A stretch of 62,397 nucleotides of DNA from a virus (lineage: Duplodnaviria; Caudoviricetes): IMG/VR virus record IMGVR_UViG_3300044640_001993, positions 1 to 62,397 of that record, one strand, 5' to 3'. Of this stretch, positions 3,567-25,063 are shown piece by piece. Both the position numbers and the translations under genes were made by a program. Positions within the stretch are counted from its first letter, which is position 1, and each line of letters begins with the position of its first letter. Below the pieces are notes generated by a model. The model had not been told where the DNA came from. It made no database searches and saw nothing but the letters and a program-made list of their open reading frames with translations.

Positions 3567-3600
3567 AATAAAAGGCTCCTTACAGCCAATAAATAAACAG

Positions 3601-3624: not shown

Positions 3625-3630
3625 ATCTAA

Positions 3631-3930: not shown

Positions 3931-3963
3931 AATACAAGCTCCTTACAGGCTGTATAAAAACAG

Positions 3964-3994
3964 AAAAATCCCCACTCAACTGAGTGGGGATTTT
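3964..3994 (-). promoter_or_regulatory. Cassette hairpin H8 plus T-run
   Basis: AAAATCCCCACTCAACTGAGTGGGGATTTT. Confidence 0.7.
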
Positions 3995-3996
3995 CT

Positions 3997-4335: not shown

Positions 4336-4366
4336 TATTAAAGCCTCCTTACAGATGTATATTTAC

Positions 4367-4401
4367 AAAAAATCCCTCAACGAACAGTTCGTTGAGGGAT
4401 T
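4367..4401 (-). promoter_or_regulatory. Cassette hairpin H9 plus T-run
   Basis: AATCCCTCAACGAAC-A-GTTCGTTGAGGGATT; no minus-strand gene lies immediately upstream. Confidence 0.7.
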
Positions 4402-7504: not shown

Positions 7505-8602
7505 TTACTCAATATAGAAGGACTGTATATAAAATTTGCTGCTAGGTAAACTTATTGGTGGGGGTGTTCTTTTAGCGATGATGAAGACAATATAACTGTC
7601 TCCTTCCTTCCAAAAAGGCGGATCTACAAACATTAAATAACTACCATCTTGATTAAAAGAACTTGATTTTTTTCCCTCTACTTGTTTATAGCCTCCTTTT
7701 TTTGGAAAACTGTCTATTAAACTTTGATTCCACTCTAATCCTACTTGACTAGCGGCAAACTTAGATAGTTGCTGCTTGTCTATCTTTTTAGTTTCTTCTT
7801 GTATTGATAGACCTATTTCTTTTGCGCTCGCATTACTCTCTACGTTTTTCTCTTTATTCTCTACTGTCACAACTTTTCTCTTAGGGTATTTAGTATACAA
7901 AACAGTAATGCTATAATAAGTTTTAGCCCGCCGCACTGCAAAAGCTTTAAAGTCTACTATAACTCCAGTTATGTCTATAGTCTCTGCTACGCCTGCGGCA
8001 TTAATAGTAATGTTTAAACTAATAGGAGCGCCTTGTTGAACTACTCTCTCATCAAACTCTTTAGCAGTCTGGTAAGAACTTCTAGATACTCCAGGTGTTT
8101 TAGGTTTTGAAGAAAACTCGTCTGACCCTACAAAAGCTCCCACCAGAACAATATATTTACTATCAACTCCAATAGTCTGGACAACATTAGTCCCGCCAGG
8201 AATGACAATATTTTTATGTTTCATAGTAGTTCTAATAGGCAATCCAGCTTTTACGTCAGGGACGCTGGCGTTACCTCTAAAAGAACCAGAGCCTGAGTAA
8301 GTTAATATGTTATCTACAGCAGGGGGTAAAGCAAAGTTAAATACTCTCGCGCCGCTTTGTCTATCTGTATATTTTATATTAAAGCTATCTATAACTCTTA
8401 CGCCTTTGCGTAGGTTTGCTAGTCCCTCTTTTGATATAGCAGGTGGATTTTGAGCTAGTAGAAGAGCTCGATTTTCTCTTGTACCTTTAACACCTACAGA
8501 CTTGGTTGGTTTTGTAGGAGTCTTTTTGGGTACTTTTGTAGTCGGCTCTTTTTTCTTTACTAAAGCTAGTAGGGTCGGGTTATCAGTTCCAAAGGATGTC
8601 AT
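7505..8602 (-). CDS. Putative tail tube initiator/baseplate hub protein (P2 gpU/Mu gpN-N-like)
   Basis: IPGGTNVVQTIGVDSKYIVLVGAF resembles that family; lies downstream of the tape-measure-position gene. Confidence 0.5.
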   Translation of the reverse strand: MTSFGTDNPTLLALVKKKEPTTKVPKKTPTKPTKSVGVKGTRENRALLLAQNPPAISKEGLANLRKGVRVIDSFNIKYTDRQSGARVFNFALPPAVDNILTYSGSGSFRGNASVPDVKAGLPIRTTMKHKNIVIPGGTNVVQTIGVDSKYIVLVGAFVGSDEFSSKPKTPGVSRSSYQTAKEFDERVVQQGAPISLNITINAAGVAETIDITGVIVDFKAFAVRRAKTYYSITVLYTKYPKRKVVTVENKEKNVESNASAKEIGLSIQEETKKIDKQQLSKFAASQVGLEWNQSLIDSFPKKGGYKQVEGKKSSSFNQDGSYLMFVDPPFWKEGDSYIVFIIAKRTPPPISLPSSKFYIQSFYIE

Positions 8603-9120
8603 ATAGCCTCACTAACTGGCAGAACTAATCTAATTCTTTCTAAAGCATTCTCTTCCTTAGTTTTAGGAGGAAAGTGCGCTAGATAAACTAGGGTTAAGTT
8701 ACTGAGCGTTGTGGTGACTAGTCCACTAGCTGTAATTGCGGTTGCTGATTCAAAGAGACTGAGCGATCGCCAACTAGGCTGAGTAAGCTGGTTGTGCGTT
8801 AATACACCTCCAAAACATACTTCTTGGCAGTTGTTACTTTGTAAACTTGTTAAAGTATTAGGCAGCTTTTTATAACCAATGCCTGCTAAATTAAAGTCTG
8901 TGCTAGTTGTCGCTCGGACAACACCGCTTATTTCTGTTACTAGAATATAACCCATTAATTCTTGAACAGTAGTCTCTACCCCTGACACAGTTGGAGGAGA
9001 GATATCAAGACTCCAAGGAGAGAACCGCCCTAATCCTATTAGATAAAAGTTTGGTTTTGCTGCTAAAGACAATATCTTTTTATATCTATTAGCTTGTATA
9101 AATGAACTACTACTTATCAT
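8599..9120 (-). CDS. Putative baseplate wedge protein (T4 gp8-like motif)
   Basis: FYLIGLGRFSPW..D..PP motif; start overlaps the stop of the giant gene. Confidence 0.5.
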   Translation of the reverse strand: MISSSSFIQANRYKKILSLAAKPNFYLIGLGRFSPWSLDISPPTVSGVETTVQELMGYILVTEISGVVRATTSTDFNLAGIGYKKLPNTLTSLQSNNCQEVCFGGVLTHNQLTQPSWRSLSLFESATAITASGLVTTTLSNLTLVYLAHFPPKTKEENALERIRLVLPVSEAI

Positions 9121-12100
9121 CACGTCTCCAAATATGTAGGAATTTCATCACCTTCGTAGGTTGTTAAGGTTACGCCTGTTAGTTCATCTAACTCCATAGC
9201 AGTAAGGAAACCGCTATTATTATTGTAATCTGAAGAAGAAGCCATTGTAGCTCCGTCTTCTTCGTCAAAGACATCAACAGAGGCTTGAGCGATAATCTGC
9301 TCACTAAAGCGTTCAGCGGCTTCTCTAGTTGATTGTTTAATACCTTCTATTATTCTGTCTGCCATATCTTGTTCTGTTACACCTTCTCCTGGTAGTCCGG
9401 CCTTTCTATTAGTGAGAAGGCCTGCTATACCCATACCTACTACCCCACCAACAACTTCTCCTGTTAATCTTCCTAAAGGTGTTGCAGCAAAGCCTCCGCT
9501 TCTAGTTCCAATGGTATCTACTACTTTGTTAGATATTACAGAACTAGCGTTGAAGATAGATTCAAAAGCTATTCCTGTAAGTAAGGATTCTGTTGAACCT
9601 CCGCCCATAGTTAAACTATTTCTGATTCTGGCTGTCCTTAACCGCTGGGCTGTTTTAGCTAGTTCCCCCTCGGAGGTAGGGTCAGCTACTGCACTAGAAG
9701 ATAGATAAGACTGGGCTGTGTTACTTAATAGTTCTATTGCTTGTTCTGAAGCTGAAGCTCTATTTTGCATCAAGGCAAACAAGGCTGGTACTGCTAATAC
9801 ACTAATAGCTTCAGATATAGAGTGCGATCGCCTGGACTCTCTACTTATTCTGTTAACTTCAAGGCTTGTAGCTCTTTTTATAGTAGCTGTGAGATTCCTG
9901 TTTAATTCGTTTTGGATGTCTTGTACGGTTTTAAAATGGTCTTCAGGACGAAGATTATTTGAGTTTGATTTAGCTGCGTCCATTTGTGCTTGTAGTCTAT
10001 CTATAGCAGCATCGTATTGTACGTTTAGTTTTTCTCTGACATCTTCTGCTTGACTAAGATTTATATTGTTAGCAGCTTGCTCGGCTACTAAGCTTGTGTA
10101 CTCTTGGTTAAGCTTACTCATTGTATAAGTAAAAGCACTTTGGTTAGCAGCTTGCTCTGCTGCGGAAGTGTTTAACTCTAGACCTTTAATAGCTTCAAGC
10201 CCAATTCTGTATTCTCTTTCTCCTGGTTTACCTTCTACTTCTGACTTGCTAAATAGTAAAGCTTCAGCCTCTTCAGATAGGTACTTACCATTATCTCCTA
10301 AAGCACCTATATCTGCCTTTAAAGCGTTCTTATCAATACTAGGATTTGTGAAAACTGTATACTCCATTGCTAAATTTAAGTTTGTATACTCATTTGTTCT
10401 CACATATCTAGAGGCTCTTGCTTCAATTGCAGCTATATCTGGGTTATTATCTCCATCAGGATTGTAGCCTATAGAAGTGTTTTGCAGTCCTAACATACTA
10501 AAGAAGCCTCTATAAGCCGCCTCGGCAGGTCTTTTATCTGGTTGATTTTCAATACCTGGATTTGTAGTTTTAACAGCTTCTGCGGCTAAACCAGCTATTT
10601 CTGGTAAAGCTTGAGCATAAAAGCCCATCCATATATTAGGGTCAATCTTTCCAGCAGCTAATTGTTGAGCAAAAGCTGTAGAGTATAAACTTAAGTTTTG
10701 TTCCAAGTTAGAAGGTAAACTACCCTCTCTCATTTCACCTATAGCACTGTGTAGATTCTTCAGTTCATTAATACTATCCTTTAACCGCTGTTGGTCGTTC
10801 TGTAGGGTTTTGTTTATACTTGCTCTTAAACCAGCTTCAAATATCTCAAAGTCGTCATTTAACCCAGAAGTTGCTTTAGCGATCGCCTCTTGCATACCTT
10901 CTTGTTCTATTCTGTATTCTTTTAGATAACCCTCTTCTAAAGTTTTTATAGCAGAAGTTTCATTTAAACCTTCAAGAAGTTCTGCTTTTCTTCTATCAAC
11001 TAGTGAATCAATAGCCCCTCTTTCAAACTCATCATCTTTGTTGTAAGTACCGACTCGCTTTACTCCGTACAGGTCTAGTAAAGCCTGTCCTGTTCTAGCA
11101 AACTCTACTCTGTTTTGTATTTCTAAAGAGTTAATAAAGATATACTCGCTTTGGAAAGCACTAGTTAGGTCAGTGATAAAGTTAGAGATAAAGTCATCTG
11201 CTGATTGACCTGCATACTTTTCTCTTGTCTGTGCAGCTTTTAAAATATCTTTAAAGACGCTTTGCTCCATCATTGCAGAGCTATCTTCAAAGTTGCCAGA
11301 AACATACTCTGTTATCAGCTTTAATGCGGCAAACGCTTTAGCCTGACGTGCGTAAACAGGGGTTTCTTTTTCTCCTAAATAGATATCTAGGTCGTTACCA
11401 ACTTTTTCACCTAAAAATCTAGTAAGAATGCTTTCTCTATTATCTTTTATAGTTCTAGAATCTCCGGTAAGACTATTAAGGATGTTGGTCAATCCTTTTA
11501 TATTGTCTTGTCCTTCTGGCAATTGAATCCCGTAGCTTGGTAACTCGTCTGCAGGGAGGAAGAAGTCATCAACCACTTCCAACATTATGGTTTTGGAAGT
11601 ATTAGTCCCTTTCTTTGATTCTTTAGGTTTAATAGCAGCGTCTCTCAAGAACTGCTGTGTAGTAATGACAAATCTCATTGCTACTTCTAGCTGGCGGTTT
11701 CCTTCATCTAGCCTTAAGTTGGTAGATAAAGTTTGACCACTGTTGAAGTAACTATTTCTTCTTTGCTCTAGTTGGTTTATAAGGCTTTGTTGTGCCTGGT
11801 CTGTAGTAGACAACTGAGCTTTTCTTTGATTTATTTCTCTAGTTAAACCAGCAGCCATAGCCATTCTGTAGGATGCTCCTTCATCACCCCGCATAGCTCG
11901 CTGGGCTGTTATTTCTCCCATTTTGATAGCTACTAATGGTACTACAGTGTTATAGGTACTTCCTAATAACCCTGTACCAGAAGCTCCAAGGATAGATTGA
12001 ATTTCATTTATACCCTGTGCGTCTAATATAGAACCTGTAGCAGAAGCAAGACGTTTATCACTATTTGCCATACTAGCGTTAAAGCTGGCAACGTTTGCTT

Positions 12101-15100
12101 GTTGTAGAATAATGGCGTTGATTACATCCTCTGGTGTATTAAGATTATCTTTGTTTTCTATGTCTTGGTAGTAATAGTCAAACTCGCTTGTGGCTGCCGC
12201 TAGGAGTTTTCTACTTTCTTCATCTCTTGTGTACCCAACCATGCCAGTTACTTTAAACTCGCCATTTTGTTTAGTCAGCTGCAGCTTGGATAACACATCA
12301 TTAGTTAAAACTCCAACTGCATCTGTGGCGTGTTTGGTATTACCATAGATGCCATCTAGAGTATCTCTAAATTGTTTAACTAAGGACTGAAGAGATTCGT
12401 CAGGTAGAATCCCGCCTTCTCCCATCATTTCACGAGGTATCGCTGTGTAAGTAGAAGTGTAGGCGCGTAGCCCTTTATTTGCTCTCTGCTTGGCTTCTAT
12501 TTTTATCTTTCTATGCTCGTTTAGTAGTTCATTTTTGTGTTTTATCATTAAGGATAGTTCTTCATCGGCAGCTTTAACTTCTGCCTTACTTATGGCATTT
12601 AGTTTGTCTGTAGAAAGAGAGCTATCATGATGAAGATTAGATTTATCTTTTGAAAGCTTGTCTACTGCAGCTTGTTGTTGTTGAATGCGTCTGGTAACGT
12701 TAGCTAATTGAGTCATTGCTCCTTGGAAGGAGTCACCGTCGTAGTCTCCCAACTCTGTATAGTGCATACCTAAAGCGGAAACAAGCATTAGAGTGGCGGA
12801 TTCTCTTTTAGCAAGGCGGACTAGTGTATCTGTTTCTCTTGCTCTTTGGTCTACTGTTCCTACCCCAACTATATTTAATAGAGCCGTCGCACTTTCAGAA
12901 GGAAGAGCCGCACCATAAGGACCACCTTGTCTTGCTTCTGTTGACGATGAGCTGTAAAGTTTTTCTATTTCTTCTAGCCTGGTTTTAGTTTTTGCTTTTA
13001 CTGTCTCATTAAAATCAGCAAAAAGTGGTAAGTCAAGATAACTAGAAGGAAATAATTCTTTAACTGGTTCTACACTATTAATCTGTCTTGAACTAATTAA
13101 CCTTGAGGTGTAGTCCATAAAAGAGTCAACACTAGCTACCCTATACCCATCTATAAGAGGGTTTACATGACTTCTAGTTATATACTCTGTTTCTGGAAGC
13201 TCTTGTCCATAAGTTTGTGAGTAGTAAGTCTGTCTTTGTTGGTTTAGTCTATCAACTAACTTATCTAGTAAAAAAGGAAGCTGACTTTCTTTTAAAGCTA
13301 CACTCTGTTTACTAGCTTCAAGCTTGGCTTCATTTTCTAGAATTATTTTTTCTTTTTCTTCTATTTTTGTGCGTAGATTTTTCTGTTCATCTTCAATAGT
13401 TTTAGCTACTCGCATTTTAAAAACATTAATGTCTGACTTATCAATAGGGCTACTTGCTTTTTTTCTTATTCTTACTTTTTCATTTGCATTGTCATCACTC
13501 TCGTCATACTCTCTACCATATTCTACATACTCGTAGTCTAAACCCATCCTTTTTAATAAACGGTTAGAGACGTAACCTTTTTTAAATGTTTTTCCCTCTT
13601 CAGCAATTCCATCTTCATCTTTTTTATCTCTTAATCTAAAGGTTTCTAAATCTTTATACTCAGCTTCAGTTAAACTACTATTTTGGGTAGCATTGTCTAC
13701 AAGACTTTGCATTTTGTTTCTTGTAGCGTCTAAGTCTTTATATCTTTGGATTAGGTTTGCAAGTTGACGATGTTGAAGACCTGTAAAGAGTGTTACACTT
13801 CTTACTTCATTTGAATCAGGAATATTTGTTCTATAAGAAACTTGTTTAGTAGTTGTACCAACTTGACCTTCTAAATAATCTATTGAGGCATTAAGTTTCA
13901 CTATGCTTTTAGAAACGCCAAGTAAGGCTGCTCTAGACGTTTTCAGTTCAGCTTTTACGTTTGCGTTCTGTCCTCTTTGAGTGACTTCCGTAAATCTAGA
14001 GCCAAAAGCTACTTCATCCTCTGCTAGTAAGAGACTAGACATAGCGATCGCACTCATACCAGAAAGCTTTAACCTATCTGTGGCAGCTTGTCTAATAGTC
14101 TCTTGGTTGTTAAGCAACTCACCTGTGGTTTCCACAGATTCTCTCATTAAGAACTCTAACCTACGATACTGTGCTAACTCATAATCATCTAGTTCTGTAG
14201 TCTCAGACCTATTACTTGCCCCACTTAATCTTTCTAATAAACTGTAACTATTAGTCAATTGGTCAGACAAAGCTACTTGAGTGGTCAAGGCGGCGTGGCT
14301 TTCACCTTGAAAGACTAAAGATATCTTCTGCATTAAGTCTAGACCTAGCAGCAAGCCCTGGTTAGGTGAAGAAGAAGTAGTAGGTGCATAGCTGACAGTA
14401 TGCTTGCCGCTCTCACTCATACCGTGTCCTATCAAAGCTGGTAGAACTAATCTTTTTGTTTTAGAGATAGTCTCATACAAGTTTTTAGCCTGCTCTATAG
14501 TTGGGTCTTTACCGTGTTTACTATCTTTACTATCTTTTGATTTTTGAGTGTGAGATACGCTCCTAAGAACTTCCATTCCATACTGTAAATACTCTGTACC
14601 TGATTCAGTATTCTGAGAGGCAGTAATTCTTCTGTTTATATCAGCTTGGTAGTGTTCATAAACTCCGCTATCTCTCAATAGGTCTTCTGTGAGGTACTTA
14701 GCAATATCTAGTTTTTGATTAGGTTGGTCTGTTAGTAGTAAAGGATTAAGAGCCGCCACACTTGTGGTTAACTTTGTGAAAAAGCTTTCGTAGTAAGCAA
14801 TAGGGGCTATAAGAGTTTGCTTGTTCTTTAAAGTTTCTAAACTTCTTTCAATAATTATTTTTGGTAACTCTGTTTCTATAAACTGGCTTCTATACGGGTT
14901 TTGGGAACTCATTCTTGAATCTTTCCCATAAGCTGTACTAAACTCTTTGAAAATAGAAACCACTTCCTTCTGGATAGCTGTTTTCTGTACACCATCCATT
15001 TGAACTTCTTGGAGTATGCGTCTTTCTATCTGTCTCCTTCTGTAATTAACTCCATCCTCTGCGTCTTGAGAAGATGGCATTACTATACCTCCAGCTAGTT

Positions 15101-18100
15101 GTCTAACAAGACCCATCTTTTCTACAAGTCTCTTTGCATCCTTACCGTCTGGGTTATATATATAAGCCAGTACAGCATCTTTAGCCAAAGGACTAGTAAA
15201 GCCTCTCTCTCCGGCTACAACAGTGGGTAAAGTCTTCTCAGCTACTCTACTAAAATTACTAAGGAAGTTAGTAGCAAAGCGCATTGATTTACTAATACCA
15301 ACCTGCTCATCTAGACTAGCTAGATTAGTTACTTTCAAACCATATAAAGTAGAAGCACGGTAGGGGTCAGGTAGCTGACCTTCCATTAGTCCTCCCAGCA
15401 GTAGTACAGCTTGTTGGATGCTGAGAACGTCTTGCTTTTCTTGTAAAGTATCTGTATAAAGACCAAGTTGCGCCTTAGATAACTCTAAAGCGTAATGGCC
15501 CTCCATTTTAGTCATGTTTTGCATCCCAACTGCTACGGCAATCTTGCTTGGTAGTTTTTCAATACCAAACTCCATGAAGCGGTTCAAGCGCAGCATAGCA
15601 TTAACTTGAGCTAAACCAAACTCAAGCTGCTTTTCTAGCATTTCTTTATTTTGTCCTGTAGCATTATTAATGTCTTCGGGTCTTGGTAGATGAACGTTCA
15701 AACCTGATGCCACTCTTCTTACAGAAGCTATCATAGCTAGTCTAGTGCGGGGGTCGGTGTCAGCAGTTTCTCCTAAATATCTTTTTCTGTTCTCTGACCC
15801 CATAAAGTAGGCAGGATTTACCTCGCTTATAGAAGCACCGTTAAGTCTTTGATTTGTGTCTATATCTCCTAACAAATCCTGTCCTGCTTTAATAAAGTAA
15901 GCTAATACACTAGCTGACCGACTATCAAAAGAATCATTAAAGATATAACGAGACTGATCAAACTCTACGCCTAATGCTCGGTCTGTTCTGGTTCTGACTT
16001 CTCCAAAGAGGCTTAAAGCTCTAGTCTTTAAGCGTTCTCTAGCTTGATTTGCTTCTGTACCAGTTCCTAAAGCAAGAGAGACTGTTTTTACAAGAGCTTG
16101 ACTAACACTTAGAGTGTTATCATTTAGAAACTCTGGAAGAGCTAAAGAAGTTAATTCACCAAATATCTGGAAAGTGGGTTTAGCTGCATCAGTAATACTA
16201 TTGGTTCTTCCTCTGACTGGTAAAGCTTTACCCTGTGAACTTCCAGGTTTTAATAGAGCTAAAGCTGCTTGGCTTTTACCAGAAGTTTTTAAATGCTCGC
16301 CGAGCAATCTTGAGATAGTTTCATTATCATCTACTTTTTCTTTTAGCATCATTAATGCTAAACCTTCGGCTACGGCTGCCCCACCTTCATCTCCGCCAAC
16401 AAACTTAAGAAAACTGCTGTCGTGCCTATCTTCTATAAGCATCAGACCTTGCTCAAAGTTAAAGCCTTTAATCTGAGAAGGGGTAAGGATAGCGTAGATA
16501 CTTTGATCTCTTAATCTTTCTGGTAACAATTCTGTGTTTGTACCTTTAGATTTTTCTAAAGCATCAAACAGGTCTCCTGACAACATAAGGTCTGGTCCTT
16601 TGCTAGTGTCTGTACCAGGTCTAAGACCCGACATGGTGTCTCTTCTGGTGGAAGTATCTAACTCCAAAGTGATAGTGGAAGAACCAGTTTGAGATATTCT
16701 AGGGTCTTCATGTAGTACAGTTACCCCTCTATAAACTCTTTGGCTGACAGCAGGTAACTTGAACTTGAGAAGTTGTGTGGCCTTCTGTTGCCCACCTAAA
16801 CTGTCATATTCATAAAGTCCTTTAATTGTAAAGTAGCCTTTGGACTCTTCTAGCTGCCCAATCATCTTCTTACTAGTTAGTCTTTCTTCAGGAGAAGACC
16901 CAACAGCCGCTGACTGTACACCTCTTCTAAAGTAGAACTGTCCCTTAGAAGATTTAAACTGGACAGTTTCAAATCTAAGAGATATTGCATCTTCTAGATT
17001 CTTTCTCTTACCAGCGTCAAGACTTTGCATTTTCTCAACAAAGTTTAATTTATCATCACCCTCTTGAGGGTTTAGCTGGTCTAAGACAGTTTTTTCTAGA
17101 AGCGATCGCAGCCCTGTGTCTTCTATAAGTGTATCTAAGGCTAAGAACGTGACTCCTTTAGTTAACTTTTGTCTAACTTGCTGCTCAAAGGATACGTTAC
17201 CTTGAAGTCTGGTAGCATCCAAAGTCATAGTTGTTTTGTGTAACAAGGTGTACTCAGGTCTGTTACCTGTTTCGTCACGATAGTCGGCATTAACATAAGC
17301 AAAGTCAGACATTGTGGCTATACCCATGCTCTGCAATACTCTTTTAGGTGATGTACCGCCAAGAAAGCCGCGCACTAAGCTCATTGAGTCGCCGTGTATA
17401 TTGCGTTTTATATAGTTAAGAACTGTGTCTGGATTGTTTTTATTTTCTTCTAATAACTTCTGTAGATACTTAAATTGATGTTCAGGTATAGAAGTCATCA
17501 TGCTGCCTGCCAGCATATTCTCTAGCTGTAAAGGGTCTGCAGTAGTGCTAAAAACGCCCAGAGTGTCTGCATACCTACCAAAGTCTTTAGAAGCAGCTTC
17601 TACTGGTCTACCGCTTTGTAAGTTCTTTAAACGTTGAGAGATTTGTTCAGTTACGCGGTAAGGAAAGTAGAATAGTGAACTACTGCTACTACCGCGCACG
17701 GTTAACAGTTTGAATACTTCCTCTTCTTGTTCCTTGGCTCTTTTAGCAGCTTGTTCATCACTTAAGCCTGCTTTTCTTAAAGAAGCTAGAACTTGAGCAA
17801 CATAGTCTTCTCTTCTGAGGATGCCAAGCTGCCGCATAGTAGAGAGCATAGATTCTGTATCTCTGATAGAAGCCGCGCCCCCTTCTGCTTTATAGATACC
17901 ACCTTGATTCTTATATAGGTCACGTTCAGTAAATCTAATACTATCCGCGATCGCTCTGATGTAAGAACCTCCCAATGACTCTCCATGACGTAAAGCATGG
18001 GGGCTTAATAGAAAGCCTAGAGTGCTTTGAGACTCTGCTAAGTTGTAGAGATCATCGTTAATCCCAAACACTGGTGTTTTGTAAAGTGCTTGACCAAAAG

Positions 18101-20915
18101 AGTATCTCAACTCATGAGGCTGCATAAAAGCACTGGTTTGTTGGCTGAATAAGTCTCTTTTTGCTGATTGTTGACTTCTTTCGTATAAATCTCTTGCTAC
18201 GTCATCTTGATTGACTATTAGCCTTAATAGGTCATGGTAAAGAGTAGAAGTCTGGCTATTACCTAAACTAGAGATTAATAGTTTATCTAACGTCTGAACA
18301 ATATTAGAAGATAGTGCTAGAAGCTCTACAGAGGTATAGGAAGCTTTGTCTGGTCTTACTATGTCTCTTATTCTATCTGCCCTTTCCTTTAGGAATGTGG
18401 GGTTTTCTACTCCAAGACTGGATTCAGCTAGAGGTAGTTGAAGTCTACCTGATAAATTTAATAATACTTGTTCTATACCTGGAGTTGCGGGGGAACCCAT
18501 TAACCTTTGAAAGAAATTTCTTTCTTTTACTCGTTTGTTACCTATGGCTTGAAGCGTCTTGTCTAAACCAGGTGCAATGGTCTCTGTCCAGCTTAGTAAA
18601 CCTAATTGCTGCGCCTGTTGTTGTGCTAAAGAGCCTAATACATTACTTAAACCTTGTTGTCTAGAACTAGGACTCATTCGAGATAAAGCTAGTTGTAGAG
18701 ACCTGTTAGCAGCTTCAAACTTCATAGTATGCTGCATGGTGTGGACTAACCCAGCGACTACTTCTAAAGCTCCAAACTGCCTAGTCTCACCTGGGGCTAG
18801 TTCTACACCGTTATACAACTTAAGAACCTGCTTACTATCATTTTTGTAAATCATGCCATTAATGACACGATTGTTCTTAGATAGATAAACAACAGGTTGA
18901 TAGTCCTGTAAGCCATGCTCTTGTCCTACAGTTACAGAGAAGCTATACCCCTTACTATCACCTTCTAGCCCTGGTATCTGGATATCTAGCCCTGATAGCT
19001 CTCCTTTTCTGTTAATGTCGTATCTTTTGCTAAATATAAAGCCTTTGTTTGATACCTTCTCTCTAGCATCTACACCACCTATGCCTACCAGCATAGAGAC
19101 TAGTTTTCTAGTTTGGTCAGCGCTACCCCTTGCTTCTGTAAAAGAACCAAGCTGTCCTTTGCGTCCAAAGTTGCTGACACCGTGATAGTAATAAGAGGCT
19201 ATATCTTGTTGTTCTCTATCTGTCAAGCCTTCTATTGTTGTTTGGTCAAGGATTAAAGTTGCCTCAACGTTAGTCAGATGGGAGTTAAGACCCCAGTTAG
19301 CTGAACCAATACCATACTCAAAAAGTTTATTTTCTCCATCAAGAATGGCAAAGGATTTACTGTGAGCAAACTTTGTGGGTAATAAAGAGAAAGAGTTCTT
19401 TTCTAACAAAGTTGTCAAGACGCGAGCGTTTTCTTCTGGTAGCTTACCTGCGTGGTAATCATCTAATAGAGAGAACAAACCCTGACCTCTTCCAAAGCTA
19501 GTTGCAGAAGTAGCCAAGCTTAATCTATCTTGCTGCGCTAAGGTCTCTAAAGCTGCTAGAAAAGGTCTAGTTATAGTTTGGTGGTAGTCACTACCAGCTC
19601 GCATATCTACCTGCAGACTATTATTTGAAGAAGCACTTTTAGCATCTGCGTAGAATATTCTTTCAAGATACTGAATAGATAAAATTACTTTTTTAGTTTT
19701 TGTATGGTCATTAGCCGCAGATTGTATTTTCTCTAGAATCTTTTTCTGTATCTCTTCTCCAACAAATAAAGCTTTTGGAAGAGCATTCAATCCAGCAAGA
19801 TTCTTTTCTGTTCTAGCATATACATTATCTCTAAAATTTAACGTCAAATTATGACTAGTTCTTGTACTCTGCGATATAGCTTCGACCCCACTTCTTAGCT
19901 GCCTTTGTTGGTCAGCAGCCGCGTCATAAATAGCATCTGTAACGGCTTTAATCTCGTCTATTAATCTCCCGCGAATAGATTCTCTTCTGTCTAATTCTTT
20001 GTCTTTAATATTAGGGTTTTGGGAAAAGCTTCTATATATGTCACCGCGGGTTAGCACAAGCATTTCTTCTGCTGTGTGTGCTTTAGATAAAGCCCCAGTT
20101 ATATTTTGTGTAGATATAAAAGATGTTTCTGCTTTTTTACTAGAGTCATTCTCTACTGATAAATAACCTACTTTAGCATGAAGGTAACTGCTTTCAGGCA
20201 TACTAACGCCGTATGCTGTTATATTATTCTTATTTTCAAGAATCTTAAGCGTTACGTCGTTACCTAATAAGACTCTCATACTGTCTTGAGTGTCTTTGTT
20301 ACCTAACCCTTTAGCAGAGTAGTCGGAGTTTAGGAAGCTTTGAGTAACTAGTTCTGTGCTCGCACGTCTTTGGTTAATACCTGCTACAGTGTTTATTTCC
20401 TGTACTTGGTACATAGACATTCTCAGGCTCATACCTCTAGCCTGTTCATTAGCTAGAAGAGAGTAGGTGTCGTAGTGAGTTGGACGACTTATAAAACCAG
20501 AAGGAGGTTTATATGTGTCTGTCCTTTGTGAACCTTCACCATAGCCTGTAGCTCGACGCATTTCATTGTCATAGCTTAATAAGGCAGATGATAGTCTTTC
20601 AGCTTGACTGCCGACAACAAACCTTAAATAGTTCTCCTTAGTTTGGTTGTCAAGGTTCTGCATCTTGGTACTAAACCCGATGCTGAGGTTAGTGGCAGCC
20701 TTAAAGGGGTCACGAGAGTTTTCATCAAAGGTATTAAAGAACTGTGACACTGGGCTGCCCCGACCCATGTTGTACTCAACTAGACTTATAAAAGGATTCT
20801 CTTTTACTTCCTGCTCTGTAACTTGTTGTTGAGGAGTAGGTTGTGTAGTCCGGCTGCCATCATCATCTTCAAAGTCAAGAGAATCGCCATTACTGATTAT
20901 ATCTTCTTCATTCAT
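9120..20915 (-). CDS. Giant (3931 aa) putative virion single-chain two-barrel RNA polymerase with N-terminal PLD-like motifs, in the tape-measure position
   Basis: Catalytic-type LGDYDGD (12732-12749); ordered beta-like and beta'-like DPBB motifs; HAK...STQN and HSK...D...GSAN PLD-like motifs; hydrophobic C-terminal segments. Confidence 0.7.
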   Translation of the reverse strand: MNEEDIISNGDSLDFEDDDGSRTTQPTPQQQVTEQEVKENPFISLVEYNMGRGSPVSQFFNTFDENSRDPFKAATNLSIGFSTKMQNLDNQTKENYLRFVVGSQAERLSSALLSYDNEMRRATGYGEGSQRTDTYKPPSGFISRPTHYDTYSLLANEQARGMSLRMSMYQVQEINTVAGINQRRASTELVTQSFLNSDYSAKGLGNKDTQDSMRVLLGNDVTLKILENKNNITAYGVSMPESSYLHAKVGYLSVENDSSKKAETSFISTQNITGALSKAHTAEEMLVLTRGDIYRSFSQNPNIKDKELDRRESIRGRLIDEIKAVTDAIYDAAADQQRQLRSGVEAISQSTRTSHNLTLNFRDNVYARTEKNLAGLNALPKALFVGEEIQKKILEKIQSAANDHTKTKKVILSIQYLERIFYADAKSASSNNSLQVDMRAGSDYHQTITRPFLAALETLAQQDRLSLATSATSFGRGQGLFSLLDDYHAGKLPEENARVLTTLLEKNSFSLLPTKFAHSKSFAILDGENKLFEYGIGSANWGLNSHLTNVEATLILDQTTIEGLTDREQQDIASYYYHGVSNFGRKGQLGSFTEARGSADQTRKLVSMLVGIGGVDAREKVSNKGFIFSKRYDINRKGELSGLDIQIPGLEGDSKGYSFSVTVGQEHGLQDYQPVVYLSKNNRVINGMIYKNDSKQVLKLYNGVELAPGETRQFGALEVVAGLVHTMQHTMKFEAANRSLQLALSRMSPSSRQQGLSNVLGSLAQQQAQQLGLLSWTETIAPGLDKTLQAIGNKRVKERNFFQRLMGSPATPGIEQVLLNLSGRLQLPLAESSLGVENPTFLKERADRIRDIVRPDKASYTSVELLALSSNIVQTLDKLLISSLGNSQTSTLYHDLLRLIVNQDDVARDLYERSQQSAKRDLFSQQTSAFMQPHELRYSFGQALYKTPVFGINDDLYNLAESQSTLGFLLSPHALRHGESLGGSYIRAIADSIRFTERDLYKNQGGIYKAEGGAASIRDTESMLSTMRQLGILRREDYVAQVLASLRKAGLSDEQAAKRAKEQEEEVFKLLTVRGSSSSSLFYFPYRVTEQISQRLKNLQSGRPVEAASKDFGRYADTLGVFSTTADPLQLENMLAGSMMTSIPEHQFKYLQKLLEENKNNPDTVLNYIKRNIHGDSMSLVRGFLGGTSPKRVLQSMGIATMSDFAYVNADYRDETGNRPEYTLLHKTTMTLDATRLQGNVSFEQQVRQKLTKGVTFLALDTLIEDTGLRSLLEKTVLDQLNPQEGDDKLNFVEKMQSLDAGKRKNLEDAISLRFETVQFKSSKGQFYFRRGVQSAAVGSSPEERLTSKKMIGQLEESKGYFTIKGLYEYDSLGGQQKATQLLKFKLPAVSQRVYRGVTVLHEDPRISQTGSSTITLELDTSTRRDTMSGLRPGTDTSKGPDLMLSGDLFDALEKSKGTNTELLPERLRDQSIYAILTPSQIKGFNFEQGLMLIEDRHDSSFLKFVGGDEGGAAVAEGLALMMLKEKVDDNETISRLLGEHLKTSGKSQAALALLKPGSSQGKALPVRGRTNSITDAAKPTFQIFGELTSLALPEFLNDNTLSVSQALVKTVSLALGTGTEANQARERLKTRALSLFGEVRTRTDRALGVEFDQSRYIFNDSFDSRSASVLAYFIKAGQDLLGDIDTNQRLNGASISEVNPAYFMGSENRKRYLGETADTDPRTRLAMIASVRRVASGLNVHLPRPEDINNATGQNKEMLEKQLEFGLAQVNAMLRLNRFMEFGIEKLPSKIAVAVGMQNMTKMEGHYALELSKAQLGLYTDTLQEKQDVLSIQQAVLLLGGLMEGQLPDPYRASTLYGLKVTNLASLDEQVGISKSMRFATNFLSNFSRVAEKTLPTVVAGERGFTSPLAKDAVLAYIYNPDGKDAKRLVEKMGLVRQLAGGIVMPSSQDAEDGVNYRRRQIERRILQEVQMDGVQKTAIQKEVVSIFKEFSTAYGKDSRMSSQNPYRSQFIETELPKIIIERSLETLKNKQTLIAPIAYYESFFTKLTTSVAALNPLLLTDQPNQKLDIAKYLTEDLLRDSGVYEHYQADINRRITASQNTESGTEYLQYGMEVLRSVSHTQKSKDSKDSKHGKDPTIEQAKNLYETISKTKRLVLPALIGHGMSESGKHTVSYAPTTSSSPNQGLLLGLDLMQKISLVFQGESHAALTTQVALSDQLTNSYSLLERLSGASNRSETTELDDYELAQYRRLEFLMRESVETTGELLNNQETIRQAATDRLKLSGMSAIAMSSLLLAEDEVAFGSRFTEVTQRGQNANVKAELKTSRAALLGVSKSIVKLNASIDYLEGQVGTTTKQVSYRTNIPDSNEVRSVTLFTGLQHRQLANLIQRYKDLDATRNKMQSLVDNATQNSSLTEAEYKDLETFRLRDKKDEDGIAEEGKTFKKGYVSNRLLKRMGLDYEYVEYGREYDESDDNANEKVRIRKKASSPIDKSDINVFKMRVAKTIEDEQKNLRTKIEEKEKIILENEAKLEASKQSVALKESQLPFLLDKLVDRLNQQRQTYYSQTYGQELPETEYITRSHVNPLIDGYRVASVDSFMDYTSRLISSRQINSVEPVKELFPSSYLDLPLFADFNETVKAKTKTRLEEIEKLYSSSSTEARQGGPYGAALPSESATALLNIVGVGTVDQRARETDTLVRLAKRESATLMLVSALGMHYTELGDYDGDSFQGAMTQLANVTRRIQQQQAAVDKLSKDKSNLHHDSSLSTDKLNAISKAEVKAADEELSLMIKHKNELLNEHRKIKIEAKQRANKGLRAYTSTYTAIPREMMGEGGILPDESLQSLVKQFRDTLDGIYGNTKHATDAVGVLTNDVLSKLQLTKQNGEFKVTGMVGYTRDEESRKLLAAATSEFDYYYQDIENKDNLNTPEDVINAIILQQANVASFNASMANSDKRLASATGSILDAQGINEIQSILGASGTGLLGSTYNTVVPLVAIKMGEITAQRAMRGDEGASYRMAMAAGLTREINQRKAQLSTTDQAQQSLINQLEQRRNSYFNSGQTLSTNLRLDEGNRQLEVAMRFVITTQQFLRDAAIKPKESKKGTNTSKTIMLEVVDDFFLPADELPSYGIQLPEGQDNIKGLTNILNSLTGDSRTIKDNRESILTRFLGEKVGNDLDIYLGEKETPVYARQAKAFAALKLITEYVSGNFEDSSAMMEQSVFKDILKAAQTREKYAGQSADDFISNFITDLTSAFQSEYIFINSLEIQNRVEFARTGQALLDLYGVKRVGTYNKDDEFERGAIDSLVDRRKAELLEGLNETSAIKTLEEGYLKEYRIEQEGMQEAIAKATSGLNDDFEIFEAGLRASINKTLQNDQQRLKDSINELKNLHSAIGEMREGSLPSNLEQNLSLYSTAFAQQLAAGKIDPNIWMGFYAQALPEIAGLAAEAVKTTNPGIENQPDKRPAEAAYRGFFSMLGLQNTSIGYNPDGDNNPDIAAIEARASRYVRTNEYTNLNLAMEYTVFTNPSIDKNALKADIGALGDNGKYLSEEAEALLFSKSEVEGKPGEREYRIGLEAIKGLELNTSAAEQAANQSAFTYTMSKLNQEYTSLVAEQAANNINLSQAEDVREKLNVQYDAAIDRLQAQMDAAKSNSNNLRPEDHFKTVQDIQNELNRNLTATIKRATSLEVNRISRESRRSHSISEAISVLAVPALFALMQNRASASEQAIELLSNTAQSYLSSSAVADPTSEGELAKTAQRLRTARIRNSLTMGGGSTESLLTGIAFESIFNASSVISNKVVDTIGTRSGGFAATPLGRLTGEVVGGVVGMGIAGLLTNRKAGLPGEGVTEQDMADRIIEGIKQSTREAAERFSEQIIAQASVDVFDEEDGATMASSSDYNNNSGFLTAMELDELTGVTLTTYEGDEIPTYLET

Positions 20916-20976: not shown

Positions 20977-21759
20977 ATGACCACAGACAGACACATAGTA
21001 ACTATTCCAGCAGCAGATTTACCAAATCGGGCGTTAGATGTAAGCTACACAGAACCAACTTACGGCGATTATCGTAAAGCTAAACGGCTATACCCTTACC
21101 CTACAAGAGAGGGAGAAGTTAGACCTTCTTATAGTGTAGAAGAGCTGCTGTTTGCTTCTATGCTTACCAAAGTAGAAAGTAAAGGAAAAGAGTTACCTAT
21201 TGAGCCACAAGATTTACCGTCAAGAATCGAGCCATTTCCTATTGATGACCGTCAAGCTATGATGCTTGAATTTATTGGCTACCATTTTTTAGATGAAGAC
21301 CAATCTAAAGCTGCTAAGGCTTTTGCGATGGAGCAGCGGGCTGGTGCTATTAAACCTTCTCTTTTAATTCCCGGTAGTATTACACCTTCTGGACGAAGCT
21401 TTCTGCTTAATCGTCCTAATACTGGTACACAATGGAAAGCTGATAATGTCTTTAAGGGTCCGCAAGAGAATGGCTGTACTCTCGATGAAATGTTAGTAGC
21501 TATGTGTCTTGCTGAAATTAACAGTAAGCCTGTAGCTAGTGATCTTAAAGATATTGTTTCAATATTTGATGCGGAAAGAATTGATGAGGTACAGTTTCTT
21601 GCGACGATATTCATTAATGCCTTCGTTCTCGATAGCGATAGTGCTGATGAGGCTAAAGCAAGGGGAAAGCGGAAGAAAGCAGAACTTGGCAAGAAAAAAC
21701 CAGTATCCAAAAAAGCAGATACAGTGACCCAAGTAGCGATCACACCACCAATTTTATAA
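20977..21759 (+). CDS. Tail assembly chaperone (gpG-like)
   Basis: Two internal repeats of a chaperone-like pattern; in-phase slippery heptamer G GGA AAG near the 3' end. Confidence 0.7.
   Translation: MTTDRHIVTIPAADLPNRALDVSYTEPTYGDYRKAKRLYPYPTREGEVRPSYSVEELLFASMLTKVESKGKELPIEPQDLPSRIEPFPIDDRQAMMLEFIGYHFLDEDQSKAAKAFAMEQRAGAIKPSLLIPGSITPSGRSFLLNRPNTGTQWKADNVFKGPQENGCTLDEMLVAMCLAEINSKPVASDLKDIVSIFDAERIDEVQFLATIFINAFVLDSDSADEAKARGKRKKAELGKKKPVSKKADTVTQVAITPPIL
21663..21669 (+). promoter_or_regulatory. Programmed -1 ribosomal frameshift site GGGAAAG
   Basis: Same heptamer as the lambda G/GT site, correct codon phase, -1 frame open from 21657 to 22235. Confidence 0.8.
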
Positions 21760-21800
21760 AAAGTGATGCTGTTATACCTTTTATAGATTACCTTCCTGCT

Positions 21801-22235
21801 ATGCCTATAGGGTGTGATGTTCAAGTAGGAGGAAGGTTAAGTGCTTTTCCTGGGTGGTATCCAATAGACAGAAGATACCTGTTTGCCACACCAGAAGAAG
21901 CGGAGCATTACTCTTTTAGGGAACATTTTAGATTAGACGCTGAGGCAGAGTATTTCTCTAAAAGGTATGATATAGCCTCTCTAGTTGCTATTAATCAGTT
22001 AATGCCTATCTCAGCTGAAGAGTGGTTAGGATTAAGAGAAGACCCTTTTACTAAAGCTTATGGTCTTCCTGACCCTATTAAGAAGGCTATAGCCTTTGAG
22101 GTGGCCAAGATAGGAAGAGACAGGGAAAGTAAGCAAAGGGAACAGCAACAAGAGTTAAAGCTAGAACAAACAGAGTTCAGTGGTCGGTTGAACTTTGGTA
22201 CACCTAATACGAGTTTTGGTAAAGTGTATAGTTAA
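21801..22235 (+). CDS. Tail assembly chaperone gpT-like part (probably made as a G-T fusion, 20977-22235)
   Basis: -1 frame relative to the upstream gene, with no stop back to 21657. Confidence 0.65.
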   Translation: MPIGCDVQVGGRLSAFPGWYPIDRRYLFATPEEAEHYSFREHFRLDAEAEYFSKRYDIASLVAINQLMPISAEEWLGLREDPFTKAYGLPDPIKKAIAFEVAKIGRDRESKQREQQQELKLEQTEFSGRLNFGTPNTSFGKVYS

Positions 22236-24316: not shown

Positions 24317-24985
24317 ATGAATGAGAACCAACTACTAGAGGCTATGATTTCAGCTCCTATCACGGCTGTTACTCCTAATCAAGTAGAACCTATTGTTGCT
24401 AGAGGGTATGGTAGTCAAGAGTTACTTTTATCTCAACCAAGAGCTATCCAACCTCTAAAGACTTTACAGCCAACAGAGCAAATGACGAACAGTTCGTTGC
24501 CTGTGCAGCCTCAAAGTCAAGTTTTTATGGACTCTTCTTATGGTTATGTTTCTGGCAGCAGACACGAGGAGTCTGAAAAGGTAATACCAAATTATAGATT
24601 AGCTACCTCTTGTGCTAACTGCGCCTTTTCAACCTATGATCCTGTTCGGCGAGAAGCTACCTGCCAGAAGTGGAAGGTATGTGTCACGCCTTTCTACGTT
24701 TGTGACTTTCATCTAAACCCTAGTACATTGGCAGAGACACAAGAAAACTTCTCTGAGACGGCTGTTACAGAATCTACAGAGAATGAGGTTGTTTCAGATG
24801 TAGATGTAGTAGATACCTCTTTAGCAACTAACTCTAAATATGCTGACATCGAGTTGTACGCAGAGGCTTTGACCTTGACCCCTTCTTATTTTGATATTGA
24901 AGGATTAGCCGAGATTTACTCTGAGAAAAAGTACCAGCAGTTGTTTAAAGCTAAACACGGAGCTGCTTCTCCTTATCTTTCTTAA
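24317..24985 (+). CDS. Hypothetical head-module protein with a four-Cys motif
   Basis: CANC-x12-CQKW...VCDFH. Confidence 0.65.
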   Translation: MNENQLLEAMISAPITAVTPNQVEPIVARGYGSQELLLSQPRAIQPLKTLQPTEQMTNSSLPVQPQSQVFMDSSYGYVSGSRHEESEKVIPNYRLATSCANCAFSTYDPVRREATCQKWKVCVTPFYVCDFHLNPSTLAETQENFSETAVTESTENEVVSDVDVVDTSLATNSKYADIELYAEALTLTPSYFDIEGLAEIYSEKKYQQLFKAKHGAASPYLS

Positions 24986-25063
24986 TTATTTTTCTCTTTT
25001 TCTTTACTTTTTTTTGTTTTTTTTAATACTGAGCTAAGTTTAAACCAACACTAATAACTGCTT

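Follow-up and report, generated by a model that had tools for sequence, protein, structure and literature searches.

A giant cysteine-free protein family represented in Microcystis phage Ma-LMM01 and its candidate single-chain RNA polymerase core

Coliphage N4 packages within its capsid a virion RNA polymerase (RNAP) of ~3,500 aa, which is injected and transcribes the early genes, and the crAss-like phages are podovirus-like. Thermus phage P23-45 encodes gp96, a virion protein of 5,002 aa which contains a DFDGD motif and membrane segments within the chain and is reported to transcribe the pre-early genes (PMC10770324), while gp66 from phi14:2, a crAss-like phage, is described as a packaged single-chain two-barrel RNAP (bioRxiv 10.1101/2020.03.07.982082; PDB 6VR4 as cited in PMC10770324) which groups structurally with QDE-1-type enzymes (PMC10770324). 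According to the same account, a DxDxD motif is what led to both gp96 and gp66, whose sequences otherwise showed no similarity that could be detected (PMC10770324). The original prediction for the locus described here, which was made from the DNA sequence, drew on these two systems as precedents, and both the tape-fused virion RNAP of P23-45 (PMC10770324) and the crAss-like virion RNAP (bioRxiv 10.1101/2020.03.07.982082) are indeed documented. Ma-LMM01 and its relatives serve as models for the phages of toxic blooms of Microcystis, and it is stated in published work that such phages lack an RNA polymerase gene, or that host sigma70-type promoters serve each of the three temporal gene classes (PMC9927357, PMC5780444). 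The analysis presented here suggests that phages thought to be wholly dependent on the host RNAP may bring their own RNA polymerase.

The stretch of DNA analyzed, hereafter the window, comprises 62,397 nucleotides of a caudoviricete virus record (IMGVR_UViG_3300044640_001993), the virus being akin to Microcystis phages, and corresponds to ~40% of a genome. Positions 9120..20915 of its minus strand constitute a single unbroken ORF of 3931 aa, in agreement with the original prediction, and all six motifs quoted at that time are located where they had been placed (Table 1). The encoded protein contains 0 cysteines among its 3931 aa and three tryptophans, as opposed to 103 cysteines among the 13,249 aa (0.78%) specified by the 31 other ORFs of the window. 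Pfam searches detected no RNAP family and no metallopeptidase or other peptidase family in the giant ORF, nor any RNAP family in 13 diverse members of its protein family, while PF00623 produced 0 matches across the whole window and matched 14/14 control genomes. Profile searches of PDB sequences with two queries (A1 and A2) returned irrelevant rows only (E 0.12-2.4), and no match to the giant ORF was obtained by megablast and tblastn against 50,697 phage records.

Table 1. Positions of the giant ORF's segments and motifs and of the genes discussed in the text (nucleotide positions are those of the window)
Feature	Residues (aa)	Position (nt)	Strand	Basis or remark
PLD-like module, two HxK...(S/T)xN motifs	~200-560	19236..20318	minus	motif conservation and Pfam
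First HxK motif, H246-x-K248...T-Q-N271	H246/K248/N271	20103-20180	minus
Second HxK motif, H518-x-K520...G-S-A-N540	H518/K520/S538/N540	19296-19364	minus
Beta-subunit-like module	~930-1800	15516..18128	minus	AF2 model and fold match
Motif MGIATMSDFAYVN	1197-1209	17289-17327	minus
D1204...N1209 (MSDFAYVN), candidate beta acidic loop counterpart		17289..17306	minus	49/49 invariant
Beta-flap-like beta-rich insert	~1221-1425	16641..17255	minus
Motif GLRPGTDTSKGP	1430-1441	16593-16628	minus
Candidate basic residues of beta-like barrel	R1432, K1439-G-P, K1483	16467..16622	minus	48/49, 49/49, 49/49
Motif IYAILTPSQIK	1473-1483	16467-16499	minus
Putative beta'-like barrel, first half, R..A.GDRLK..G.S.IA...G.R	2266-2307	13995..14120	minus	hhalign and conservation
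Motif RLKLSGMS...	2281-2305	14001-14075	minus
Variable alpha-helical hairpin insertion between putative barrel halves	~2320-2650	12966..13958	minus	low conservation, long helices in model, coiled-coil matches only
Motif ARQGGP	2661-2666	12918-12935	minus
RQGxP and GDYDGD metal-binding-type motif (the latter at nt 12732-12749)	2662-2666; 2723-2728	12732..12932	minus	invariant residues
Motif DYDGD	2724-2728	12732-12746	minus
Downstream invariant blocks Q2973..G2977..G2980..LLG.TYN and QQ..RD...K.K	second block 3087-3098	11622..11999	minus	conservation
C-terminal hydrophobic segments, candidate membrane-inserting helices	3698-3716; 3817-3835	within 9411..9824	minus	Kyte-Doolittle scan
G/GT-like gene pair adjoining giant gene		20977..22235	plus	in-phase GGGAAAG slippery site 21663-21669, open -1 frame
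Sheath gene		37124-40867	opposite to giant gene
Tube-like gene		40879-41553	opposite to giant gene
Baseplate wedge genes		49441-50877	opposite to giant gene

The giant ORF is one of a family that counts at least 53 clusters (53 proteins passing E <= 1e-3), whose members are mostly 3,000-5,400 aa in length (46 are of at least 3048 aa) and from which cysteine is absent family-wide, a striking constraint in proteins of 3-5 kaa which may report on the exit of the giant protein from the virion. Profile searches place in this family gp080 of Ma-LMM01, a Microcystis phage available in culture; the kinship of gp080 with the giant ORF is visible by profiles only, a direct tblastn search of gp080 against the window yielding one 54-aa HSP (E 0.002). 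Our literature search found no paper which describes the family or ties Ma-LMM01-like phages to a two-barrel RNAP. Identity among members falls to below 20%, and most of the protein is variable outside a limited set of residues. In 49 aligned full-length relatives, G2723, D2724, D2726, G2727 and D2728 are invariant, as are D1204, N1209, K1439, K1483 and R2662, while R1432 and G2286 are each retained in 48/49 and G2305 in 47/49. The original prediction had staked itself on the conservation of DYDGD in homologues, and GD(Y/F/W/N)DGD was found at the equivalent place in 64/64 family proteins examined; its motif assignments likewise coincide with family-invariant residues. By simple arithmetic, a lone D.DGD is expected by chance in approximately 1 per 20 proteins of such size; the motif of the giant ORF, however, goes beyond chance, being invariant in 49/49 relatives together with the companion residues listed above. 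The GD(Y/F/W/N)DGD motif, along with a group of basic residues, is thus invariant in this family of giant cysteine-free proteins, of which Ma-LMM01 gp080 is a member.

Fold searches of the beta-like half used an AF2 model which spans aa 880-1900 (pTM 0.74, mean pLDDT 75.3). Foldseek returned no PDB row at E <= 0.001, and 50/50 of the best rows correspond to RNA polymerase complexes, led by 7pks_B (E 1.4e-2) and including the cyanobacterial RNAP 8syi_C (E 1.9e-2, prob 0.90), with structural alignments to cellular RNAP displaying ~8% identity. Among BFVD models, the best match was the Ma-LMM01 protein A0A7J4_2 (E 2.1e-12), followed by giant-virus RNAPs from E 5.2e-3. A basic-residue barrel (beta-type, DPBB-B) is present within the beta-subunit-like fold of the predicted model, as is a flap domain lying as an insert within the beta barrel, and the module, as modeled, thus displays the fold of the second-largest RNAP subunits, flap included. 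The presence of an RNA-polymerase-type core in the giant protein is supported by this predicted fold match of its beta-like half. R1432, K1439 and K1483 would represent the first barrel's basic residues, two of which would act in the active site, and D1204...N1209 is tentatively assigned to the beta ED loop on the basis of its order and spacing.

The original comparison with enzymes of the crAss/QDE-1 type found no support among the best 50 rows, in which the nearest fold is that of multisubunit-type beta subunits (cellular, phiKZ, AR9 and poxvirus); chains of gp66, QDE-1, RDR, YonO and PolD were absent from these 50 matches, which were obtained with a long model. The same search bears on the prospect of a two-barrel polymerase of other specificity, for instance a primase-like enzyme, a DNA polymerase akin to PolD or an RNA-dependent RNA polymerase. 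The superfamily includes RNA-dependent RNA polymerases (QDE-1, which has both activities; PMC9508822) as well as archaeal PolD (PMC10770324), but the top nine fold matches among the best 50 are all DNA-dependent RNAP subunits with a flap, which, together with the weaker point that no PolD, QDE-1 or RDR chain is found in those rows, renders such a specificity highly improbable.

The beta'-like half is weakly suggested by the invariant motif, by weak collinear profile matches and by a weak complex prediction. When compared by hhalign with a beta' profile of 40 sequences, the block at aa 2266-2307 had its top match at beta' 337-371 (P 0.13) and the RQGxP/GDYDGD block at beta' 444-469 (P 0.012), both weak, and the block at aa 2973-2989 weakly matched beta' 676-688, the probabilities for the beta' matches being 0.4-4.6%. 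The five best of 64 windows in a sliding control were collinear with beta' (327-371; 444-469 twice; 676-688 twice). Model 1, which covers aa 2141-3110 (pLDDT 65.6, pTM 0.31, with the GDYDGD loop at model residues 575-594 below 50), retrieved no RNAP by Foldseek (best E 0.47), and a VIA-wide fold search with it retrieved coiled-coil helical hairpins only (model residues 223-412 and 594-668); because the matches are filled by the helical insertion, these searches are uninformative on a beta'-like fold. Neither a bridge helix nor a trigger loop was identified in this half, its long helices and invariant blocks (aa 2973-2989 and 3087-3098) being unmatched to either element. Complex prediction with three cut pieces (aa 1149-1519, 2141-2325 and 2650-3010) gave a score of 0.38, constituting weak support (runs of 0.11, 0.38 and 0.40, median 0.38; best of three controls 0.00), with the runs sharing at least 33% of contacts at a partner pLDDT of at least 52. 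The calibration mark for this score is reached by 58/80 solved complexes and 2/110 mismatched pairs, but at values of <=0.60 by just 7/80 solved complexes and both passing mismatches; moreover, the prediction departs from the calibration in its use of pieces of one chain and of custom alignments, and it may reflect memory of solved RNAPs. Of the two barrels originally predicted, the beta-like one is thus borne out by its fold match, while "two-barrel" as a whole is half shown, since the second, beta'-like barrel is not seen in model 1.

The giant protein might also be read as an exapted, non-catalytic RNAP-like scaffold with a structural or ejection role, in which GD.DGD forms a metal site for another purpose. 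The lack of a detected RNAP sequence family and the unconfirmed beta'-like fold are compatible with this view, as is published Ma-LMM01 work in which no need for a phage RNAP is perceived (PMC5780444, PMC9927357). We nevertheless consider it improbable, given that the residues which remain invariant at <20% identity are those of the expected active-site set (three Asp; Arg/Lys in the beta-like barrel) and that the rest of the protein mostly varies.

The PLD-like domains of the original prediction are recognizable as a module in which the HxK...N residues occur twice and are kept, for each motif, in 40-41/49 members; the Asp of HxK(x)4D is off its canonical spacing and poorly kept (D526 in 14/49). 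The Pfam PLDc_2 match of the giant ORF itself (E 0.011, 16 bits) lies under the cut-off of 27, whereas PLDc_2 was detected in 2/13 diverse members (best E 7.4e-8) and RE_NgoFVII PLD in 1/13 (8.2e-8), and for the BFVD entry of Ma-LMM01 UniProt gives the name "PLD phosphodiesterase domain-containing protein." The C terminus, previously described as hydrophobic and Gly-rich, harbors two hydrophobic segments, which are the only 19-residue windows of the protein with a Kyte-Doolittle mean of >1.3; Gly richness holds for the second of these.

We propose that aa ~930-3100 (~2,200 residues) probably form a single-chain RNAP with beta-like and beta'-like parts, two-barrel, DNA-dependent and of the multisubunit (cellular/phiKZ/AR9) type, which is flanked by other domains and packaged in the virion. 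The three aspartates of GD.DGD would bind the catalytic Mg2+ in the second barrel, itself split by a helical insertion of ~330 aa. Packaging and injection are envisaged such that the giant protein would exit the virion through the tail at infection, transcribe the first phage genes without the host enzyme and possibly also assist the uptake of the DNA. At entry, the tandem-HxK (PLD-type) module near the N terminus would function as a phosphodiesterase on DNA or membrane lipid, the pair of hydrophobic helices at the C terminus may anchor the protein in the membrane, and the total absence of cysteine would fit passage across the periplasm in an unfolded state. The structural and motif evidence above would also suit an active RNAP which is synthesized in the infected cell to serve middle or late genes and is left unpackaged, particularly as non-virion RNAP subunits of phiKZ and AR9 are among the best fold matches. 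This alternative appears distinctly unlikely, as the giant gene has structural genes around it in all the loci seen (4/4) and as a length of 3-5.4 kaa, the lack of cysteine throughout the family, the C-terminal hydrophobic helices and the PLD-type module would be left unexplained in a cytoplasmic enzyme.

The giant gene adjoins the portal/protease/capsid (head) operon, from which it is divergent in 4/4 loci with upstream context (the window, L001, L002 and Ma-LMM01). Its proposed position in the tape-measure slot does not agree with this arrangement, nor with that of the sheath, tube and wedge genes, all encoded on the opposite strand at a distance of 16-30 kb (16 kb for sheath and tube). The hub/wedge neighbors that had been predicted trace solely to sub-threshold matches of a 174-aa ORF at 8599-9123 (BW3TFN, 19 bits versus a cut-off of 27; phrog_1394, E 1e-5). 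The G/GT chaperone neighbor, in turn, proved to be a real frameshift pair, which is conserved in the window, L001 and L002 with a -1 frame open for 180-190 codons and is transcribed away from the giant gene. The small-gene array at 107-4401 was considered as an equivalent of the Ma-LMM01 early cluster gp054-063, and no link was shown; of seven Ma-LMM01 proteins tested (gp060-063 and gp065-067), only gp062 matched the window, at its far end (62154-62396).

A tape-measure or tail-lumen ejection protein which carries an RNAP, in the manner of P23-45 gp96 (PMC10770324), would extend rather than exclude the packaged polymerase proposed above. Such a fusion would be consistent with the directly adjoining frameshift pair, with the two C-terminal hydrophobic segments and with the long, contractile tail of 230-260 nm reported for the relative MaMV-DH01 (PMC9927357); furthermore, PHROGs and Pfam recognized no tape-measure-like helical protein between the tube and baseplate wedge genes, and a language-model feature search of aa 2650-3110 ranked tape-measure clusters first at 0.78, a non-significant value (lead level 0.9) that is treated as a lead only. 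It is judged unlikely on account of the location beside the head operon, on the opposite strand to sheath and tube and 16 kb from them, of the chaperone-like pair being transcribed in the other direction, and of the central rather than N-terminal RNAP, in a protein in which Pfam found no metallopeptidase domain. Pfam and PHROG searches of the giant ORF detected no TMP family, and because the window represents part of a genome the tape measure may lie outside it, with Ma-LMM01 gp120 being a protein that could fulfill this role. Regarding the two Ma-LMM01 proteins considered as tape measures, gp064 (1673 aa) contains 24 Cys and is of mixed composition, and gp120 (2898 aa) contains 0 Cys and displays hydrophobic Gly/Ala stretches; HMM searches did not place gp120 in the giant family, and no homologue of it was found in the window.

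A more comprehensive and somewhat doubtful reading would assign three functions to one cysteine-free polypeptide of 3-5 kaa which passes through the tail of Ma-LMM01-like contractile-tailed phages, these being a tandem-HxK attack on membrane or DNA, a membrane anchor or channel formed by the C-terminal helices and a complete fused beta-beta' RNAP. Its cellular-type RNAP would transcribe the first genes and help to pull the genome in, and the C-terminal helices would perhaps double as a tail-lumen/tape-measure protein served by the adjoining G/GT-like chaperones.

If true, a phage-borne polymerase would change the reading of an unusual infection programme in which host transcription is almost untouched, and would overturn published accounts in which these bloom-controlling phages depend completely on host sigma70 transcription. 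Injected two-barrel RNAPs would also gain a third, independent lineage, which would be the first to occur as a single chain in a myovirus-type virion. With regard to polymerase evolution, the family would constitute a fused single-chain, cellular-type beta/beta' core, flap-bearing and cysteine-free, unlike the crAss/QDE-1 and P23-45 lineages. As Ma-LMM01 is cultured, the hypothesis is directly testable.

In comparison with known systems, the giant protein resembles P23-45 gp96 in being a giant chain with a D.DGD motif as the sole sequence clue and with membrane-type segments, although no sequence relation between the two was detected. The RNAP of gp96 is N-terminal, whereas the RNAP-like core here is central and follows an N-terminal part of ~900 aa with the PLD-like module; gp96 is the product of a siphovirus tape-measure gene, whereas the present gene neighbors the head operon in a phage that has a sheath gene; and gp96 is flat and clamp-less in structure and possesses a metallopeptidase domain, in contrast to the multisubunit-type, flap-bearing beta-like half described here. 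Neither the tape-measure gene position nor the N-terminal RNAP with a metallopeptidase body, which were looked for as gp96-type features, was thus observed. The likeness to gp66 lies in the large single chain, the DFDxD-type motif and the undetectability by ordinary sequence searches, while the best matches of the beta-like model are the second-largest subunits of cellular, phiKZ, AR9 and poxvirus enzymes, with gp66 and QDE-1 absent from the best 50. The N4 virion RNAP serves as a functional analogue for a giant injected polymerase, its fold, T7-like and single-subunit (palm-type), being unrelated (PMC7824862).

In phiKZ and AR9 (PDB 7ogp and 7s00), beta and beta' are split over four or five polypeptides, whereas here they would be fused in one chain of 3,931 aa with extra domains. 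The giant protein differs from cellular beta/beta' in its ~8% identity, in the lack of a Pfam match and in consisting of one chain instead of two, and, as it contains no cysteines, it would lack the zinc-binding elements of the cellular subunits. It nonetheless resembles them in the order of its halves, beta-like followed by putative beta'-like, in the flap-like insert of the first barrel and in the aromatic D(F/Y)DGD, and it resembles bacterial beta' in having helices inserted immediately upstream of the Asp triad (described in PMC7824862).

The minus strand of the window harbors a single unbroken ORF of 3931 codons (9120..20915), in which all six of the peptide motifs quoted in the original prediction were found where it had placed them, the DYDGD codons lying at nt 12732-12746. 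The encoded protein contains no cysteine and three tryptophans, compared to 103 Cys in 13,249 residues (0.78%) and a Trp content of 1.03% for the 31 other window ORFs. Its Kyte-Doolittle mean exceeds 1.3 in just two 19-residue windows, aa 3698-3716 and aa 3817-3835, both near the C-terminus; the anticipated hydrophobic, Gly-rich C-terminal segments were thus recovered as hydrophobic, with Gly richness noted for the second. Pfam returned a single, sub-threshold match (PLDc_2; E 0.011, 16 bits, cut-off 27), and a PHROGs search of the protein yielded no useful match.

A word-indexed search identified 12 full-length relatives (39-100% identity; 3735-4385 aa), and a profile of aa 2640-3110, applied to 1.84 billion representatives, retrieved 53 proteins with E <= 1e-3, of which 43 reach <= 1e-10 and 46 are 3,048-5,389 aa long. 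The expectation that DYDGD would be conserved in homologues was borne out by the presence of GD(Y/F/W/N)DGD at the corresponding place in 64/64 stored family proteins, 63 of which have zero cysteine. When 49 full-length members were aligned with MAFFT (15 of the 64 being excluded), G2723, D2724, D2726, G2727, D2728, and R2662 proved invariant, as did D1204, N1209, K1439, K1483, Q1091, R1095, G2977, G2985, R3091, D3092, and K3096; R1432 is kept in 48/49 members. The remaining columns are mostly variable, and aa 2320-2650 vary in length.

The model of aa 880-1900, built from a 24-row alignment (mean pLDDT 75.3, pTM 0.74), shows a predicted beta-subunit-like fold. Although a Foldseek search of the PDB with this model gave no row at E <= 0.001, all 50 rows listed were RNA polymerase complexes (best E 1.4e-2, probabilities up to 0.95), and the matched chains, as judged by length, would correspond to second-largest subunits. 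The three beta-like motifs previously proposed coincide with the invariant D1204/N1209, R1432/K1439 (R1432 being near-invariant), and K1483, whose order and spacing are similar to those, in E. coli beta, of the acidic loop, the segment with two lysines, and the strand after it. Because the tools employed yield ranges rather than residue pairs, equivalence at the residue level is presumed.

The beta'-like half represents the weak link of the RNA polymerase reading. The model of aa 2141-3110 attained a pLDDT of 65.6 and a pTM of 0.31, with the GDYDGD loop below 50, and both fold searches performed with it were taken over by the long helical hairpins of an insertion; of the single-chain, two-barrel enzyme originally envisaged, the beta-subunit-like fold is retained, whereas the second barrel was not seen in this model. 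Several observations nevertheless favor a beta'-type barrel. The second residue of the invariant Asp triad is aromatic, as in NADFDGD of beta' and, according to PMC10770324, DFDGD of P23-45 gp96. Against a profile of 40 proteobacterial beta' sequences, family aa 2266-2301 (R..A.GDRLK..G.S.IA) aligned to beta' 337-371 (RFRQNLLGKRVDYSGRSVI...) with P 0.13 and aa 2706-2733 to beta' 444-469 with P 0.012, both at probabilities below 5%; in a control that slid 64 windows along the full chain, the best five were collinear with beta', two of them falling at 444-469, two at 676-688, and one at 327-371. Immediately upstream of the Asp triad lies a variable helical insertion, and PMC7824862 describes a helical insert at the corresponding spot in bacterial beta'. 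Complex prediction using three pieces cut from the chain (aa 1149-1519, 2141-2325, and 2650-3010) scored 0.38, whereas the highest-scoring of 3 controls reached 0.00, providing weak support. No RNAP family was detected by Pfam in the giant protein or in 13 diverse members, by a PF00623 search of the window, or by profile searches of PDB sequences; P23-45 gp96 and crAss-like gp66 are likewise invisible to sequence methods.

The predicted PLD-like domains are supported by two HxK...(S/T)xN motifs (H246/K248/N271 and H518/K520/N540), kept in 40-41/49 members. Based on these motifs and on significant Pfam matches to PLDc_2 or the NgoFVII PLD domain in 3/13 diverse members, the N-terminal module is likely of the PLD phosphodiesterase type; the canonical PLD Asp is poorly kept across the family. 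Matches to RNase_H_2 (2/13; best E 8e-4) and the RNase_T exonuclease (1/13; 6e-4) among the same members (P0017-P0061) suggest lineage-specific nuclease inserts in some giant proteins.

Coordinates of features in the window and in related loci
Feature	Position	Strand	Remark
Inverted repeats	111-145, 757-780, 1955-1975, 2555-2612, 2907-2936, 3606-3624, 3965-3994, 4371-4401		
174-aa ORF	8599-9123		downstream of giant gene; weak sub-cut-off matches to a virion structural PHROG and a baseplate-wedge Pfam family
260-aa/144-aa pair	20977-22235	+	GGGAAAG at 21663-21669
Sheath gene	37124-40867	+	
Tube-like gene	40879-41553	+	
gp25-like and gp6-like wedge genes	49441-50877	+	
Terminase-like gene	53525-56731		
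gp062-like sequence	62154-62396	-	right edge
Pair in related locus L001	8591-9828	-	
Pair in related locus L002	8652-9889	-	
gp120 gene (Ma-LMM01 stretch L086)	24619-33315		
42-bp repeat array (Ma-LMM01 stretch L087)	3272-3552		Ma-LMM01 43271-43551

The genome examined is the window itself, with a CheckV completeness of about 40%. The giant gene is back-to-back with the head operon: 62 bp upstream of it, on the plus strand, are the 260-aa and 144-aa ORFs and, after these, the genes for portal, protease, and major capsid protein, and in related loci (IMG/VR, a JGI metagenome) it likewise adjoins the portal/capsid operon. The capsid protein shares 28-29% identity with its counterparts in the Microcystis phages Ma-LMM01 and MaMV and in a Microcoleus phage, kinds that account for 10/10 capsid-matching records. 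As the tube and wedge genes lie further along the plus strand, the giant gene is not positioned between tube and baseplate, and its assignment to the tape-measure slot was abandoned. The supposed hub/wedge neighbors are reduced to the 174-aa ORF with its weak matches, the two ORFs beyond it giving no informative match. The sheath protein is unusually long (1247 aa), its sheath PHROG match being limited to aa 782-1233 (in Ma-LMM01, the sheath gene measures 2325 nt), as is the terminase-like protein (1068 aa; TerL match limited to aa 548-912).

The proposed G/GT chaperone beside the giant gene was upheld as a G/GT-like frameshift pair. Tail-assembly chaperones are marked by a slippery heptamer with an open -1 frame (the lambda G/GT rule), and the 260-aa/144-aa pair carries an in-phase GGGAAAG with a -1 frame open for 190 codons; heptamer, phase, and open frame (180-190 codons over three loci) recur in L001 and L002, the giant proteins of these relatives being 51% and 39% identical to that of the window. 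From sequence, the two ORFs resemble tail chaperones of the G/GT type, yet they stand at the head of the portal operon. The giant protein may double as a tape measure: it adjoins this pair, and no tape measure was recognized between the tube and wedge genes of the window, whereas its position, the incompleteness of the genome, and gp120, another cysteine-free giant, encoded by Ma-LMM01, argue otherwise. This protein (2898 aa, 0 Cys, Gly/Ala-rich hydrophobic stretches), encoded directly after the terminase gene, falls outside the RNAP-like family by HMM, has its own PHROG and no homologue found in the window, and is a candidate for the role of tape measure or of ejection protein.

At the right edge of the window, 81 aa share 60% identity (E 3e-26) with the C-terminal portion of gp062 ("kinase") from Ma-LMM01, listed in PMC5780444 among early genes gp054-gp063. 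Directly upstream of this early cluster (gp063 to gp054, minus strand), Ma-LMM01 carries an annotated 42-bp repeat array of 6.7 copies, which may bear on how early promoters function. Between small minus-strand genes at window 107-4401 are perfect or near-perfect short inverted repeats, several with common cores CCCCACTCA/TGAGTGGGG or CAACGAAC/GTTCGTTG, which could represent terminators or hairpin promoters.

The family combines an invariant Asp triad and basic residues with a site among structural genes and family-wide loss of cysteine. We propose that the beta-like and beta'-like modules would form one two-barrel active site and that the giant protein would be packaged and exit via the tail at infection, its lack of cysteine presumably reflecting unfolded passage across the oxidizing periplasm; the C-terminal helices may then insert into the membrane, and the protein would transcribe the first genes, as crAss gp66 and P23-45 gp96 do. 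The N4 vRNAP also transcribes the first phage genes. The chief reservations about this reading concern the second barrel and delivery in the virion.

In the literature searched (which took in neither supplements nor the first description of the Ma-LMM01 genome), no account was found of the combination proposed here: a single chain with a PLD-like head, a putative fused cellular-type beta-beta' with flap, C-terminal hydrophobic helices, and no cysteine, in a phage that has a sheath gene and is related to Microcystis myoviruses. Two reports on the Ma-LMM01 group state that MaMV-DH01 "lacks ... RNA polymerase" (PMC9927357) and that all Ma-LMM01 gene classes rely on host sigma70 (PMC5780444), the opposite of a phage-borne RNAP. 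By function, the closest counterparts are the RNAPs injected by P23-45 and by crAss-like phages, whereas the beta-like half is structurally closest to enzymes of the multisubunit type, among them the split RNAPs found in phiKZ and AR9.
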